This document shows positions 958-14,197 of a stretch of 14,336 bases of DNA, piece by piece. Position numbers and translations under genes: made by a program. Under the pieces are notes generated by a model. That model did not search any database, was not told the DNA's origin, and saw only the letters and a list, made by a program, of their open reading frames with translations. The DNA lies in UHGV virus genome UHGV-0226239; one strand, 5' to 3'. Within the stretch, counting starts at the first letter, position 1. The number at the start of each line of letters is the position of its first letter. Origin of the DNA: a virus.

Positions 958-1336
958 GGAAACTCCTTTTATTGGTGCTTGCTATTTGAATAAAAATACG
1001 CCAAACAGAGTGTTAACTGTGAATATGGAAAGAATCGTTGTAAGTACCCCGCTTAGGTGTCCCATTCTATTTTAGAGGTTCTCGTGCATATGGATTATGT
1101 TATCTGAAAGTTAACTTCCGCTTCCCGTTCACAGCGAACATTCATCTTTGTAAACCCGTATGATCCGTTTTTCAAGTGGCCATTCAGATACGGATTTTCA
1201 CTTCCTTGACAGTGCATGACTATGCTGCATGAAATCGCATGATCGATTGAGGATCGTCTTTGCTCAGATCCGCCAGAACTGGCGGGCTTTTGCTCATGTC
1301 ATGCATGTGCATGAAAACCACTGCATAAAGCGGGCA

Positions 1337-1355
1337 GGCGTGGCGGGGATACGAG
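1337..1355. other. Candidate cos (cohesive end) site of the P2/186 type
   Basis: GGCGTGGCGGGGATACGAG: the first 13 nt match the 19-nt cohesive-end sequence of P2/186 as I remember it (GGCG[A/T]GGCGGGGAAAGCA[C/T]); it lies in a non-coding stretch near the Q end of the packaging module. Recalled from memory, not aligned. Confidence 0.3.
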
Positions 1356-1527
1356 CGCGCGTACAGTGCTTGTCTGTTATAATTGCTCAGAAGTTATGAA
1401 TAAAAGAATGGTTAATTATTAGGCAGTCATTGCAGTATGGGATAGTCATTTTTTATCAAGTAGTAATAGATTTCTATTTGATGAAAATAACTACAGTTAA
1501 ATAAGGTATGTTTAGGGAGCCAATAAA

Positions 1528-2673
1528 GTGGCAAATGATATCTTACATTTAGTTCTTGATTCGAATGTTCTTCATGAAGAAGGTTTAAATTCGAATGATA
1601 TGAAGTTATTGAAAAAATATACCGACAAAGGTTTGATTAGAATTCATTTACCTTCACTTGTGGCTAAGGAGTTTGTAACACGAAAATCAAATAATTTAAT
1701 TGATGGTCTGGAGAAATCAAAACAGTCTTTGGATTCTGTTGAGAGAGATGCTAGAGGAATAAGTGAAGAGTTATTGGAATGTTTTGATGAACTAAAGAAA
1801 AAAATCATCAATGCAAAAAATGACATTGGGAATAAACCACAGGAATGTTTTGACCGTTGGGTGCAGGACTTTAAAGTTTCTATTGTTGACACAATACCTG
1901 ACTCTGTAAATGAAGTTTTTAACGATTACTTTTTAGGTAAAGGTGTCTTCAGAAAACCAAAGGCTAGGGAAGATATACCTGATGCTTTTATTTGCGTAAC
2001 GATAATTAATTTGCTATCTGAGTTTGGCAGTATTGTTGTAGTAAATAAAGATAAAGCTTTTCGTAAACATTTGTCTGAGTATGATAAAATACAGGTGCTT
2101 CAGAGTCTGCGTGAAGTCTTTTCTTTAAAAGGTATAGATTTATTAGAAGATGAGTCAATGTTGGATTTAATCCATTCTGCTGAGTTTGTCTCTGCACTTA
2201 GCCAGTATCTACGACAGCGCCCAGATGCATTTGAGTATGTGTATTTACATGAGGATGAAATATCAAAAATAGCATTAATTGGTCAAAGGATATATGGCGC
2301 TAGTATAGAAGTAGAAAATTATAACGATATTGCTAATGCAAGTATTTCTGATGCTAGAAGTATTGATGAGCATACCTATTCGGCTTTGCTTAGTTTTGAT
2401 ATGAATGTAAATATAAATTATATAACTGATTATGGCACATTTCTCGATATAGAAAGAACACATGGTAGAAGACCAGAGATGGAAAGTATGAATGGTGACG
2501 GTATTTGTGATGTGTCTGAAAATGCTTTAACAAAGTTTTATGGTGATTTGACCGTCAAATTCAAAAAAAACAGAGAAGAGATTGACAAAAGTGATATTGT
2601 TAGATTTCTCCTTGATGAGGATATATGTGTTCAGTTTGAGATAAAAAACATTGAAATAATTGAAATGTTATAA
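1528..2673 (+). CDS. AT-rich cargo gene: 381-aa protein with N-terminal PIN-like nuclease motifs and a C-terminal domain of unknown function; candidate single-gene anti-phage/abortive-infection effector
   Basis: GTG start at 1528 preceded by AGGGAG with 8-nt spacing. About 30% GC against about 58% in flanking phage genes. Motifs D11 (ILHLVLDSNVL), E48 (PSLVAKEF), D152 (DIPDAFICVTI) and D175 (VVVNKDKAF) fit the four conserved acidic positions of PIN domains, with an insertion of about 55 aa between the second and third. Followed by a hairpin terminator. Confidence 0.8.
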   Translation: MANDILHLVLDSNVLHEEGLNSNDMKLLKKYTDKGLIRIHLPSLVAKEFVTRKSNNLIDGLEKSKQSLDSVERDARGISEELLECFDELKKKIINAKNDIGNKPQECFDRWVQDFKVSIVDTIPDSVNEVFNDYFLGKGVFRKPKAREDIPDAFICVTIINLLSEFGSIVVVNKDKAFRKHLSEYDKIQVLQSLREVFSLKGIDLLEDESMLDLIHSAEFVSALSQYLRQRPDAFEYVYLHEDEISKIALIGQRIYGASIEVENYNDIANASISDARSIDEHTYSALLSFDMNVNINYITDYGTFLDIERTHGRRPEMESMNGDGICDVSENALTKFYGDLTVKFKKNREEIDKSDIVRFLLDEDICVQFEIKNIEIIEML

Positions 2674-2676
2674 AAT

Positions 2677-2705
2677 CGGGGGGCTTTGCCCCCATGACCT
2701 TTTAA
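2677..2705. terminator. Bidirectional intrinsic terminator shared by the convergent cargo gene (+) and portal gene Q (-)
   Basis: GGGGGC-TTT-GCCCCC stem-loop (2679-2693), flanked by a T-run on the plus strand (2700-2703) and by GATTTTAT on the minus strand. Confidence 0.6.
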
Positions 2706-2712
2706 CTGATCT

Positions 2713-3741
2713 TTAAAACGTATATTTTTCGAATCTGATCGTTTTTCCCACAAGCCAGTCGTTAATTTCTTCTAAACGTTTTTGTAAGGGAATTAATTCA
2801 TTCCGAACAAATACCCGACTAGCCTTCTCCACATCCCCAAATCCCCCGACATTATTTGGCATAATTCCCATCATCTGCGGCGGCACGCGGTGTGCCGCCA
2901 TCATGTCATCGCGACTAACATTTTTGATATTCAAAAACTCATCCTTTGCCGCGACTTCAGACAACGGGATGATCTGAAGCCCGTCCTTTTTGCCGTTCGG
3001 CGAGTACATAAACAGGTTACGGAAGTTGCCAGGTCCTTTGGCGCTTTTCATCGCATTACGGAGGTTGTTCACGTCCTCCTGGTTCTGCGCGGCATCGGTC
3101 ATGTACATGATGAAGCCAGCATGACTGCCGTTTATGTAATACTTTCGACGGAACAGCGTGGCGGACTCATTGAGCAGGGCGGACGGAATAGCAGAAAGAT
3201 AGCCGGGCAGGCCATAGATCTCCTGATTTATGTCCGGTTCCATCAGATGGAAAATGCTGCCTTTCGTGAACTGATACGGTTGCGTGGTCATGCCGTATTG
3301 CACAAACCAGTAGGTATCCAGGTCTAATCCACGTCGGGTGTATTTTGCCAGCGCAGGCTCAAGAGCGATAACTTCACCGAATCGGTTCGTGCGTTTCTCC
3401 AGGTAGGCGTTACCAAATACCAGATAGTCCTGCACAAAACGTGAAAAAGCCTGCTGGCTGAGCAGCGGGTGAGGGATGTAGGTACTGGTCAGAATGTTGC
3501 ATTTCACCGCAATTGGTGAACTGTGATGCACGGCGGCGCGGAAGGTGCGCGCCAGTCCGTCAAAGCTTACTGGCGGCTCATACCAGCGATCTGTCTGTAC
3601 GCATTCCACATAGTCCAGCAGTTCTCGGCGGTCCAGAACAGGAACGGGATCGCCGAAGCTGAATGCTTCGGCTGTAGTTTGACTTTTAAGCTGGATCTGT
3701 TTCGTCGCCGCAGCGCGGTTCTTCTTACTCTTTCCCATCAA
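2713..3741 (-). CDS. Q: Portal (capsid portal) protein, P2 gpQ-like, 342 aa
   Basis: Size and position match P2 Q (divergent from O, downstream of P on the minus strand); the start ATG overlaps the P stop (ATGA-type coupling). Confidence 0.9.
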   Translation of the reverse strand: MMGKSKKNRAAATKQIQLKSQTTAEAFSFGDPVPVLDRRELLDYVECVQTDRWYEPPVSFDGLARTFRAAVHHSSPIAVKCNILTSTYIPHPLLSQQAFSRFVQDYLVFGNAYLEKRTNRFGEVIALEPALAKYTRRGLDLDTYWFVQYGMTTQPYQFTKGSIFHLMEPDINQEIYGLPGYLSAIPSALLNESATLFRRKYYINGSHAGFIMYMTDAAQNQEDVNNLRNAMKSAKGPGNFRNLFMYSPNGKKDGLQIIPLSEVAAKDEFLNIKNVSRDDMMAAHRVPPQMMGIMPNNVGGFGDVEKASRVFVRNELIPLQKRLEEINDWLVGKTIRFEKYTF

Positions 3742-11015: not shown

Positions 11016-11454
11016 ATTACAGAAGGTGGACGACTGGCTGAGTGCTTTGCTGGCGAATCTGGAGCCAGCCGCAAGAAGCCGCATGATGCGCCAGCTGGCG
11101 CAGGAACTGCGCCGGACACAGCAGCAGAATATCAGGATGCAGCGCAACCCTGACGGCAGCAGCTATGAACCGCGACGGGTAACAGCACGCAGTAAAAAAG
11201 GCCGTATCAAACGTCAGATGTTTGCAAAGCTGCGCACCACAAAATACCTGAAAACTGCCGCCAGCGCGGATTCTGCCAGCGTACAGTTTGAAGGTAAGGT
11301 ACAGCGCATTGCCCGCGTTCACCATTACGGCCTGCGTGATCGCGTCAGTCGAAAAGGACCGGAAGTACGATACGCAGAGCGTCGTTTACTTGGAATGAAT
11401 GAATATGCAGAAAATATAGTAAAAGATATATTGTTTCAGTTGTTAATAAAATGA
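11008..11454 (+). CDS. S: Tail completion protein, P2 gpS-like, 148 aa; the last ~20 codons are AT-rich and probably chimeric
   Basis: GTG start overlapping the R stop; motifs LRRTQQQNIRMQRNPDGS and QRIARVHHYGLRDRVSRKGPEVRY resemble gpS; base composition changes abruptly near 11388. Confidence 0.85.
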   Translation: MAELQKVDDWLSALLANLEPAARSRMMRQLAQELRRTQQQNIRMQRNPDGSSYEPRRVTARSKKGRIKRQMFAKLRTTKYLKTAASADSASVQFEGKVQRIARVHHYGLRDRVSRKGPEVRYAERRLLGMNEYAENIVKDILFQLLIK

Positions 11455-11618
11455 TGTGACTAAACCACATCATTTATTGCTGACTGAAAACCACGTCTTT
11501 TGGGCGTGGTCATCAACTGGTTTTGGCTCTACATTATTGCCTTTGAATTTAAATGTTACAAAACTGGCAGTGGATTCTTTTTAAAGGTTTTGGTGCGCCC
11601 TTTTAGGATGTAATCAAT

Positions 11619-11645
11619 ACCGCCTTCTTAGAAGGCGGGTTTTTA
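11619..11645. terminator. Intrinsic terminator hairpin between convergent S (+) and the HNH gene (-)
   Basis: CCGCCTTC-TTA-GAAGGCGG stem-loop followed by GTTTTTACT on the plus strand; lies 3' of both convergent genes. Confidence 0.55.
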
Positions 11646-11648
11646 CTA

Positions 11649-12302
11649 CTAATCCATAAATGGTTCAAGAATTGGACCTAATTCAGCATCTTCCATAATG
11701 ATCCATCTGCAAAATGATGAAAAAGCTGCGTCTCTTTTTATCATCATCTTCATTTTTTCAATTAAGTATTTTTTTTGTTCTGTTGGAGTATCTTCTTCAT
11801 AATATTCATTAATATTTTTAATTAGTTTTTGGGTTGTTTTCACTACTTGAGTACGAAGTGCCGCAGAAGTTAATTTTTTACTCATGGTATGATCGCTATT
11901 ATATACTTTCTCAAGTAACTCTGCGGTCGTCTGCGTTTCAATATCATTAAATAGTGCTGTTACTGTTATTTTTTTTGCTTTATAAGAATATCCTGGGAGT
12001 AATTTTACTCGATCCCATACCTTTTCTTTACAGCAATCAAGAATGTTGTCATATTTTGATAGTTTTATATTGTTACATCTGGAACATGATAGATATAAAT
12101 TATCCCAATCAAAAGCTCTTTCCACATCATCACCCTTGGGTTTAAAATGTTCAATGTTTATATCCAAAGGGTTCTTTGTTTCGCAAATGTAACATTTTCC
12201 ATAAAAGCATTCCTGTAGTGCTTCATGTACATCAGCACCATCATAACGTGCTTTCTTGGAAAGAGACTTTGGTGCAGGATATGTTCTATTAACCTTGAAC
12301 AT
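11649..12302 (-). CDS. HNH endonuclease-domain protein, 217 aa (Septu PtuB-like)
   Basis: HNH/His-Me finger signature CYICE...IEHFKPKG...NLYLSCSRCNN (two CxxC pairs bracketing His and Asn); AGGAG RBS 5 nt upstream; the ATG overlaps the stop of the upstream ATPase gene (TAATG); about 30% GC. Confidence 0.8.
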   Translation of the reverse strand: MFKVNRTYPAPKSLSKKARYDGADVHEALQECFYGKCYICETKNPLDINIEHFKPKGDDVERAFDWDNLYLSCSRCNNIKLSKYDNILDCCKEKVWDRVKLLPGYSYKAKKITVTALFNDIETQTTAELLEKVYNSDHTMSKKLTSAALRTQVVKTTQKLIKNINEYYEEDTPTEQKKYLIEKMKMMIKRDAAFSSFCRWIIMEDAELGPILEPFMD

Positions 12303-13531
12303 TATTTCTCCTGAGAATTTGCTTTTTTATATTTTAGTATCTGCATTTTTGCATAGTCAATAAATGCACTTGCATGGATGTCCATGGATTCATCTAAAGG
12401 TGCTAAGGATTGTATTATGTTATTGGCAGTTTCAATATTGTTGTTGTTAATATTGTCAATAATATCTTGAAGTTGTTCTAACTTATCTGAAAGAACTTTA
12501 GATATTGGACTTACTCCGAATAATTCTTGAAGGATGATACCATAAGAATATGAAGACACATCACTAATTTTCGCGTTGGTCGATAGATCATAAATGATGG
12601 CATTTGTGACGGATGTAACAACAAACGGAGAATGTGTAGTGACAATGAATTGTACTTTAGGAAAGGAGTGACTAAAAAATCTTAATATTTGCTTTTGCAA
12701 AGAAACATGTAAATGCGCATCTATTTCATCAATAAAAATAATACCTTCGATACTGTCAGGTGTTAAACCCCACATTTCTACTCTCATTATTAAGTCAGCG
12801 TAAATTCTCAATATTGATGAGTGGCCAGAAGATAATGTTTGAAAAGTAAACTTATCTTTACCATCTTGATTGAGATAAAATTTTCCTTCGTTACTATCAA
12901 ACGTTAGTAAGAGGTTTTTATCTTCAAAAAGTTCCTGCATATCAGTTTCAATTTTATCAAACCATTTCTGTATCCGCTGAGCTTTCTTATGGTCATTATC
13001 AAAAGAAATTGCATAGCTCTGAGCTGTTTTTAAACTAACCAAATAATTCTCAAAGAAATCATCACCATCTACTTCATTAGAAAAATGTGATTTTTCATTA
13101 ATTAAAGCCGATAGCCTAGGAACGGCAATTGGCGAGGTAATTGATGCTTCACGTAGAGCTTTGTGAAATCTCAATAGTGAACGTGTTTCACCTTCTTTTT
13201 CTTTTGTTTCTATTCTAATGGCTTTTAATTGTTCAATTTTTAATTCAATGTTTTTTATTTCTTCAGAATAAAAGTTGTAATTAACGTCGTCACGCCCGCC
13301 GTTATTTAAGTGATATTTGTAGGACTCTAACGTATTGTATAAATTATTGATGTTATGATCATTAGGTCTATCTATCTTATTTTTAAGGAAATCATAAATA
13401 GATCTAATAAAACTAGTTTTTCCACACCCGTTACCACCAGTTATTATGAGATTTTTACCGTCAAGCAATAAGTTTGCTGTCTTATTAGTGTATGGAATTG
13501 GAGCATAAATTTCATTTATTGATGTAAGCAT
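12302..13531 (-). CDS. ABC-type / AAA_21-like ATPase, about 409 aa from ATG 13531 (Septu PtuA-like)
   Basis: Walker A (GGNGCGKTS), signature-like LSSGHSS, Walker B (IIFIDEIDAHLH) and H-loop (VTTHSP) motifs. The ORF-track start at 13630 would overlap gene V and its promoter; the internal ATG at 13531 with an AAGGGAA RBS is preferred. Confidence 0.8.
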   Translation of the reverse strand: MLTSINEIYAPIPYTNKTANLLLDGKNLIITGGNGCGKTSFIRSIYDFLKNKIDRPNDHNINNLYNTLESYKYHLNNGGRDDVNYNFYSEEIKNIELKIEQLKAIRIETKEKEGETRSLLRFHKALREASITSPIAVPRLSALINEKSHFSNEVDGDDFFENYLVSLKTAQSYAISFDNDHKKAQRIQKWFDKIETDMQELFEDKNLLLTFDSNEGKFYLNQDGKDKFTFQTLSSGHSSILRIYADLIMRVEMWGLTPDSIEGIIFIDEIDAHLHVSLQKQILRFFSHSFPKVQFIVTTHSPFVVTSVTNAIIYDLSTNAKISDVSSYSYGIILQELFGVSPISKVLSDKLEQLQDIIDNINNNNIETANNIIQSLAPLDESMDIHASAFIDYAKMQILKYKKANSQEK

Positions 13532-13618
13532 ATATTCCCTTGTGTCGTTAACAGTACAACTACAACACTGATAATAATACAACTTATTGAGATACAGTTC
13601 ACCTTTAAGGGGGGAAGG
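13532..13618. promoter_or_regulatory. Predicted V late promoter (P_V) with TGT-N12-ACA at 13541-13558, overlapping the divergent promoter/5' UTR of the ATPase-HNH operon
   Basis: TGTgtcgttaacagtACA read directly; its centre is about 55 bp upstream of a plausible start just before the V RBS (AAGGGGGGAAGG). A TATTAT -10-like hexamer on the minus strand (13574-13579) is a candidate promoter element for the divergent cargo operon. Confidence 0.4.
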
Positions 13619-14197
13619 GTGAACGCACAATTAACCGAAATCATGCGCCTTATCACCAACCTGATCCGCACTGGGGTAGTCACCGAAGTGGACAGGGAAA
13701 ACTGGCTTTGCCGAGTGAAAACGGGCGAGCTTGAAACTAACTGGATCAGTTGGCTGACGCTGCGTGCAGGAAATGCCCGGACATGGTGGCGACCATCGGA
13801 AGGTGAGCAGGTGGTGCTGCTGAGTCTGGGGGGCAATCTGGAAACGGCCTTTGCGCTGCCCGCTGTCTATTCGAATCAGTTTGCGCCACCGTCGACGTCG
13901 GCGGACGCCTGTGTGACAGAATATCCTGACGGTGGCTGGTTTGAATACGAACCTGCCACCGGGCGCTGGTATGTCAGGGGCATCAAATCCATGGTCATTG
14001 AGGCTGCCGATAACATCACCCTGAAAACCAGTGAGTTTGTGCTGGAGGCTGAGTGCACGCGTATTAACAGCGAAGTGGTGGTCAATGGTGGCGTTACTCA
14101 GGGCGGCGGAGCGATGAGTTCTAACGGGATCGTGGTTGATGCGCATCAGCATACTGGCGTCCTGAAAGGCGGCGATACAACCGGAGGCCCGGTATGA
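13619..14197 (+). CDS. V: Baseplate assembly/spike protein, P2 gpV-like, 192 aa
   Basis: GTG start with a strong RBS; motifs LTLRAGNARTWW.PSEGEQVVLL...GGN.ETAF.LP and a C-terminal SNG...H.HTG block resemble gpV. Confidence 0.85.
   Translation: MNAQLTEIMRLITNLIRTGVVTEVDRENWLCRVKTGELETNWISWLTLRAGNARTWWRPSEGEQVVLLSLGGNLETAFALPAVYSNQFAPPSTSADACVTEYPDGGWFEYEPATGRWYVRGIKSMVIEAADNITLKTSEFVLEAECTRINSEVVVNGGVTQGGGAMSSNGIVVDAHQHTGVLKGGDTTGGPV

Follow-up and report, generated by a model that had tools for sequence, protein, structure and literature searches.

The DefensePredictor study (DeWeirdt, Mahoney & Laub; bioRxiv January 2025, Science 2026; PMC13092281) validated 42 new Escherichia coli defence systems, and its DS-5 (working name PN12) is the closest described counterpart of the gene considered here. 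DS-5 consists of DS-5A (WP_021513008.1, 166 amino acids), which combines a Cys-rich DUF5830 region with an AcrIF4-like domain, and DS-5B (WP_021513009.1, 376 amino acids), a PIN_12 protein. Against the BASEL phage Bas60, DS-5 conferred protection of about 10^3.7 in the screen and of 10^5.6 to 10^6.5 in replicates (plaque counts), and the DS-5B substitutions D7A and E44A brought this protection down to background (Table S7 of that study). The present analysis concerns a 14,336-nucleotide stretch of viral DNA (UHGV virus genome UHGV-0226239; the window), in which an AT-rich island between the cos site and the portal gene Q encodes a PIN_12 protein of 381 amino acids. This gene is not DS-5 as that system is defined, because a search for the essential second gene showed it to be missing; we regard it as a probable stand-alone variant of the DS-5 effector.

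The Pfam family PIN_12 (PF16289, formerly DUF4935) was described in 2017 within the VapC-like group of the PIN-like superfamily, with 'function unknown', and its genes were mostly monocistronic in that survey (Matelska et al. 2017, PMC5499597). Family members and the window protein have in common a length of about 350 to 380 amino acids, an N-terminal PIN domain with four to five acidic residues and, following its strand 2, a long helical insert, and a C-terminal alpha/beta region lacking a recognised homologue; no family-level difference was found between them. VapBC modules share the PIN fold and the acidic active site, and VapC toxins are the closest solved structures, but the window locus has no VapB and its protein is about 2.5 times larger than VapC, with an insertion and an extra domain. 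A type II VapBC identity was rejected on the grounds of size (381 versus about 130 to 150 amino acids for the toxin) and of the lack of an antitoxin-sized open reading frame (ORF) on either side. DS-3 (PIN8; WP_022645725.1; PMC13092281) is a single PIN protein without an antitoxin that needs its catalytic residues and is proposed to stay auto-inhibited until infection. Its operating logic is the same as that proposed below for the window gene, yet it is an analogue and not a relative: its PIN domain is PIN_8-like and split between the N and C termini, whereas the window protein has an N-terminal PIN domain interrupted by nothing but the insertion, and only residues 8-57 of the window protein align with DS-3 (29% identity, E=0.009).

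The genomic setting is also well described. The gpA-gpQ hotspot of P2 holds 1,650 counted gene arrangements, and several defence systems from it have been validated (Rousset et al. 2022, PMC9122126); a 2026 preprint confirms that the gpA-gpQ locus is the main hotspot for defence genes in P2. The systems that Rousset et al. tested did not include PIN_12, and 'PIN' is not named there as a system. The cargo of the window resembles P2 old/tin and other cargo of this hotspot (PMC9122126) in occupying the same locus and in being AT-rich, rare and swappable, such cargo often being anti-phage; it differs from old/tin in that the proteins are unrelated and in lying on the Q side of cos rather than on the A side.

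The cargo between cos and the portal gene

The window lies within a P2-like prophage of E. coli. Among 5426 complete E. coli genomes, 1325 match its backbone over the first 5 kb at 80 to 99% identity. In the records that match best, the replication endonuclease gene gpA is followed by a small hypothetical gene, a DinI-like gene and a gene for a 'PIN domain-containing protein', and then, on the opposite strand, by Q (portal) and P (terminase ATPase), with scaffold, capsid and small terminase genes beyond. The features of the cargo region are:

1230 to 1362, plus strand: cos-containing backbone block, delimited by alignment with E. coli, Pantoea and metagenome loci; its end is the left border of the cargo
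1375 to 1383, plus strand: candidate extended -10 promoter element TGTTATAAT, without a good -35 and giving a leader of about 140 nucleotides
1514 to 1519, plus strand: Shine-Dalgarno sequence AGGGAG, 8 nucleotides before the GTG
1528 to 2673, plus strand: 381-amino-acid PIN_12-family protein from the ORF list (43.7 kDa, isoelectric point 4.8), GTG start
1543 to 2112, plus strand: PIN nuclease domain (residues ~6-195) with D11, E48, D149, D152 and D175
1654 to 1869, plus strand: three-helix insertion after strand 2 of the PIN domain (residues 43-114)
2113 to 2670, plus strand: C-terminal alpha+beta domain (residues ~196-381) with a long curved antiparallel sheet, the motif MNGDGICDVSE and the invariant residues E331 and G339
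2677 to 2694, no strand assigned: GC-rich hairpin GGGGGC-TTT-GCCCCC, terminator-like on the minus strand in a terminator scan
2713 to 3741, minus strand: portal gene Q, placed from the RefSeq annotation of a 98% identical locus, composition and comparison of Q 3' ends; right border of the slot

In alignments of the left side with three other P2-like prophages, namely an E. coli record, Pantoea sp. JK and a metagenome contig, homology ends at about position 1362, beyond which the sequence differs from phage to phage. The conserved block closes with AAAGCGGGCAGGCGTGGCGGGGATACGAGCGCGCG (1327-1361), present in all three, and the cos core AAAGCGGGCAGGCGTGGCGGGG (1327-1348) is present in 12 fetched P2-like loci, every time a short distance upstream of the cargo. 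This block can be identified as the cos region from its conservation, its position and the P2 literature to which PMC9122126 refers; the cargo slot therefore extends from cos to the end of Q. At the right-hand border, the final ~100 bp of Q are AT-rich and vary among phages, and given these variable 3' ends recombination may have joined cargo and backbone within Q and not at the Q stop codon.

The island itself (bases 1363-2712) has a GC content of 31.7% and contains the one ORF of 381 amino acids. GC content is 0.317 across 1365-2676, compared with 0.50 in Q, 0.57 in P and 0.49 over the whole window. An initial annotation of this DNA had recognised the island, but placed its left border at 1375, about 12 bases inside the point where homology stops; its figure of about 58% GC for the backbone suits P and the late genes (0.55 to 0.62) but neither Q nor the sequence upstream of cos (0.44). 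Its reading of a single GTG-initiated ORF preceded by AGGGAG at 8 nucleotides agrees with the sequence, the ORF list and RefSeq WP_100756028.1, which is identical to the window protein and has the same start and length. Its hairpin common to the PIN gene and Q was found between the convergent stop codons of the two genes (2673 and 2713). It had also stated that no antitoxin-sized partner was present and that the locus was not a VapBC pair, and indeed the 165 bp from the end of the cos block to the GTG hold only ORFs of 20 to 35 amino acids. In the same interval TGTTATAAT was picked out by eye and may act as the promoter. Every related cargo has its own distinct GC-rich hairpin straight after the stop codon (2677-2850 in the window, with equivalents in loci L002, L003, L010, L014 and L023-25); the hairpin is a terminator-like element that travels with the cargo.

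The island (about 1348 bp) occurs in only 4 of the 5426 complete genomes. These four copies show 100% identity to one another; their host strains have unrelated origins (Tokyo, human, frog and lettuce). In other P2-like prophages the locus is occupied by genes for SIR2/ParA, AAA ATPases or DUF262, or by different ones. Comparison of the cos-Q interval across P2-like prophages, which the initial annotation had expected to be a variable defence locus next to cos, shows that the PIN gene is rare, is not core and has a GC content unlike that of the backbone. The cargo is variable, non-core, located between gpA and gpQ and adjoining cos, as in the hotspot of PMC9122126; the island is accessory cargo of the cos-Q slot in the P2 defence hotspot.

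A further terminator-like hairpin lies about 40 bp upstream of the cos core, at 1269-1286 (TCCGCCAGAACTGGCGGG, then CTTTTG), and is conserved in other aligned P2-like loci.

The PIN_12 protein and its relation to DS-5

On its profile match, the window protein is a member of Pfam PIN_12: residues 8-178 match profile positions 1-172 of 172 with 75.4 bits (cutoff 32; E=9.2e-21). Its fold is that of a VapC-like PIN domain into which helices are inserted after strand 2, and its best structural matches are VapC toxins (targets of about 130 to 150 amino acids, sequence identity 10 to 17%). Five acidic residues, D11, E48, D149, D152 and D175, are invariant across a 21-sequence family alignment with identities down to 20%, and are predicted to form the metal-dependent active site of a PIN nuclease. 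The PIN fold and four of these residues (all except D149) had been anticipated in the initial annotation, and both profile and structure searches bear this out; the insertion that it put at about 55 amino acids does exist but is about 70 amino acids long. Structure and sequence searches with the C-terminal domain gave no confident relative, in keeping with the earlier remark that this half has no recognisable motif.

PIN_12 is a large family of at least 645 clusters at 50% identity. Nearly all of its 150 best representatives are 360 to 400 amino acids long and align end to end with the window protein. A tblastn search with the protein gave no match in 50,697 deposited phage genomes or 72,556 plasmids, and a PHROGs search gave no meaningful match.

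The window protein aligns with DS-5B over its full length (39% identity over 365 amino acids, E=5e-87; PMC13092281). The earlier view that it could not be assigned to a named defence family and was a candidate for an undescribed effector is thus not supported, given this homology and its place in PIN_12. D11 and E48 correspond to D7 and E44 of DS-5B, because the N-terminal alignment is free of gaps. The two effectors therefore have the same family, the same full-length architecture (PIN_12, helical insertion and C-terminal domain) and the same catalytic Asp and Glu.

DS-5 also occupies the same genomic site. Fifteen loci of IMG/VR matched in a search with the family alignment. One of them, the P2-like prophage L023, encodes a DS-5A 100% identical to the validated protein 84 bp after the cos motif, then DS-5B, followed directly by a 342-amino-acid ORF and a long ORF on the minus strand in the positions of Q and P; the P2-like prophage L025 has the same layout, with a 94%-identical DS-5A. 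Thus, DS-5 and the window gene are alternative cargos of one insertion site. Both lack an antitoxin, and their GC contents are similar (0.34 to 0.36 for DS-5 versus 0.32 here). DS-5 differs in having an essential upstream DS-5A, whereas the window has none; the effectors have diverged; and DS-5 has a measured phenotype, whereas the window gene is known here from sequence alone. By analogy, the window gene probably works like the DS-5 effector.

Two other PIN-containing candidates were rejected as counterparts: HEC-03 (ABC ATPase plus PIN; Payne et al. 2024) has a different architecture, and the 'PIN2' construct of DefensePredictor is an unrelated DUF4411/ImmA pair.

Relatives with and without a partner, and what the gene may do

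PIN_12 genes without DS-5A occur in several kinds of element. In the P2 cos-Q slot they comprise, alongside the window gene, that of L001, 59%-identical genes in six loci (L010-13 and L021-22), a gene in the P2-like uncultivated virus genome L024, where only ~130 bp separate cos from the start codon, and a gene for a distant 353-amino-acid PIN_12 protein, 23% identical across the PIN domain, which stands alone in this slot in E. coli (L002). Others are 39%-identical genes beside an alpha-type primase in P4-like satellites (L016-19) and 34%-identical genes in Klebsiella AlpA/DUF927 elements (L005-8). A DS-5A partner is present in DS-5, in L025 and beside the PIN protein P0004, which is 44% identical to the window protein and whose gene abuts that of a partner 63% identical to DS-5A. 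The closest relative of the window protein (62% identity), from Pantoea sp. JK, is preceded by a 222-amino-acid ORF that overlaps its start codon in an ATGA-type junction (L003 4333-5001). This ORF has no Pfam family, no similarity to DS-5A and no homologue in the window; it may be an alternative partner for PIN_12 effectors. Going by the loci sampled, these distributions suggest that DS-5A is missing beside the majority of the PIN_12 genes that P2-like prophages, P4-like satellites and related elements carry. The partner-less state is common and recurs across several lineages, and is not an accident of this locus.

In a neighbour-joining tree, DS-5A-partnered genes are not monophyletic; they are split between two clades, both of which have a mostly partner-less clade as sister, and the clade of the window gene takes in the Pantoea gene with its 222-amino-acid ORF. 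Between the DS-5-type operons of L014 (172-1830) and L023 (1902-3549), the partner is better conserved (63% identity) than the PIN effector (38%). Together with the tree, this suggests either exchange of partners between effector lineages or faster evolution of the effector; tree and identities fit either repeated loss of an ancestral partner or partner transfer between lineages. The ratio of nonsynonymous to synonymous substitution rates (dN/dS) is 0.13 to 0.26 in partner-less clades with unsaturated dS, versus 0.28 for the DS-5B pair; comparisons of the window gene with its nearest relatives are saturated (dS 1.4 to 3.4), closer pairs alone being informative. The partner-less genes are thus maintained by selection as proteins.

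Some of these loci have features of their own. In L010 (1993-4073) and L021 (1494-3574), a GAPS4 system (Pfam GAPS4b_N and PDDEXK_GAPS4) lies across cos from the 59%-identical PIN_12 gene, so that two cargos flank cos. The homologue in the P2-like uncultivated virus genome L026 (4001-5143) aligns to residues 1-381, its longest ORF being 314 amino acids, and may be frameshifted or truncated. The database protein P0003 (L010 4428-5645) is 405 amino acids long from an upstream start, and the alignment suggests a start at the Met of MLHLVLDSN (about 376 amino acids); its N-terminal 28 residues are probably an annotation artefact. A 101-amino-acid ORF upstream of the P4-like copies was considered as a partner and rejected, as it is not called by the gene finder and looks like noise.

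We favour, with moderate confidence, the explanation that the cos-Q cargo is a stand-alone, phage-triggered PIN nuclease of the PIN_12 family and of the DS-5 effector family. It builds on the family assignment, the PIN fold, the conserved active site, the homology to DS-5B, the shared slot, the absence of DS-5A and the purifying selection on partner-less relatives. The protein would be made constitutively in the lysogen from its own promoter and ribosome-binding site and kept inactive, and infection by a competing phage would supply the trigger. As the locus lacks a partner protein, the role of sensor or inhibitor would fall to the C-terminal domain or the helical insertion, and one of these would probably detect the trigger. 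The active site (D11, E48, D149/D152 and D175) would then cleave nucleic acid in a metal-dependent manner, most likely RNA by analogy with VapC-type PIN proteins, and the window gene would protect the lysogen by blocking phage multiplication, either through abortive infection or through direct degradation of phage transcripts. A bolder form of this explanation can be put forward only tentatively: partner-less PIN_12 proteins may be complete one-protein immune sensors in which the C-terminal domain recognises a phage component and releases the PIN domain, with DS-5A and the Pantoea 222-amino-acid protein as exchangeable retargeting adaptors. If so, PIN_12 would be a family of modular sensor-effectors, widespread across P2 and P4 hotspots, whose sensing fold is new.

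Several points weigh against a stand-alone nuclease. Deletion of the DUF5830 gene DS-5A abolishes DS-5 protection, making the upstream gene essential there (PMC13092281), and tblastn searches of the window for DS-5A or the 63%-identical homologue of L014 gave nothing (best E 0.4 to 0.8, in unrelated backbone); because DS-5A is essential in DS-5 and absent here, an orphan effector might be inert. Protection was measured for the two-gene DS-5, partner-less PIN_12 genes being known only as sequences, and RNA as the substrate rests on the VapC analogy. A consensus promoter scan, which requires a -35 hexamer, lists no promoter upstream of the gene, and neither PADLOC 2.0 nor NCBIfam has a model for the protein. 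The gene could accordingly be an effector from a two-gene DS-5-type system whose partner was lost, being now inert cargo or dependent on a partner encoded elsewhere in the cell. Such an origin would suit the nearest partnered relative, P0004, with its DS-5A homologue abutting the start, and the two partnered clades that flank partner-less genes in the tree, compatible with an ancestral partner lost more than once; the different overlapping ORF of the Pantoea relative suggests that a partner is often wanted. We nevertheless consider it unlikely, since the ORF is intact with all catalytic residues invariant, the dN/dS of partner-less genes is not above that of partnered DS-5B, and such genes have arisen or persisted repeatedly, in at least four lineages and in P2, P4-like as well as other elements. 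The gene moreover has its own ribosome-binding site, terminator and upstream AT-rich leader, and four strains of unrelated origin carry it without a single difference.

An unconventional toxin-antitoxin or addiction module, in which a PIN RNase mainly stabilises the prophage and is held in check by a leader-derived small RNA, by a micro-ORF or by the C-terminal domain of the RNase itself, would account for the match to VapC, the classical type II toxin, and for a 140-nucleotide leader that folds slightly better than shuffled sequences (z = -2.0). The region between cos and the GTG, however, has no antitoxin-sized ORF, no tandem repeats of the type III kind and no Rfam match; with a leader z of only -2.0, an RNA antitoxin like that of type III systems was rejected as unlikely. 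The protein also exceeds VapC in length and carries the extra domain and helical insertion. Deletion of DS-5A caused no unrestrained toxicity, and the authors concluded that DS-5 is not a toxin-antitoxin system and that both genes are needed (PMC13092281); a DS-5B that is non-toxic alone fits an auto-inhibited enzyme. Such a module is in our view improbable. Very improbable is a nuclease that serves the phage's own lytic programme or counter-defence instead of protecting the lysogen, for example by turning over host RNA or by attacking transcripts of satellites or competitors while P2 grows. The gene does sit at the far left end of the packaged genome beside the late genes, and relatives occur in P4-like satellites, which interact with P2; but more than 99% of related prophages lack it, none of the deposited phage genomes searched has a homologue, it is oriented opposite to the Q-P late operon with signals of its own, and its sole tested relative is a defence system that was expressed from a plasmid without P2 functions.

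A nuclease as defence candidate in this hotspot will not surprise a specialist. What stays of interest is the control of PIN_12, a C-terminal domain without a convincing structural relative and the natural contrast between genes with and without a partner. DS-5 has been validated as a two-gene system only. If the single gene protects, the minimal unit is the PIN_12 protein, its C-terminal domain becomes the prime sensor candidate, and annotation tools, which now miss PIN_12, could add the whole family; if it does not, it provides a clean natural control showing that DS-5A is indispensable.

Neighbouring genes and a second island

On the gpA side of cos, an ORF on the minus strand (622-957) encodes a strongly acidic protein of 111 amino acids (isoelectric point 4.05; 26 Asp/Glu versus 7 Lys/Arg). 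Pfam and PADLOC searches with it gave no match; RefSeq names a homologue 'DUF8087 domain-containing protein'. The ORF occurs alongside many different cargos and is missing from the four genomes that carry the PIN cargo. Its acidic composition recalls DNA-mimic anti-restriction proteins, a resemblance offered purely as a guess.

A second AT-rich island (about 11400-13630, GC content 0.30 to 0.34) lies among the P2 late genes and encodes a type I Septu system with two components:

12302 to 13630, minus strand: PtuA (PADLOC PDLC00268, E=2e-138; Pfam AAA_21)
11649 to 12302, minus strand: PtuB (PADLOC PDLC00321, E=5e-100; HNH domain)

Thus, the prophage carries a recognised defence system in another variable locus, with a composition like that of the PIN island.

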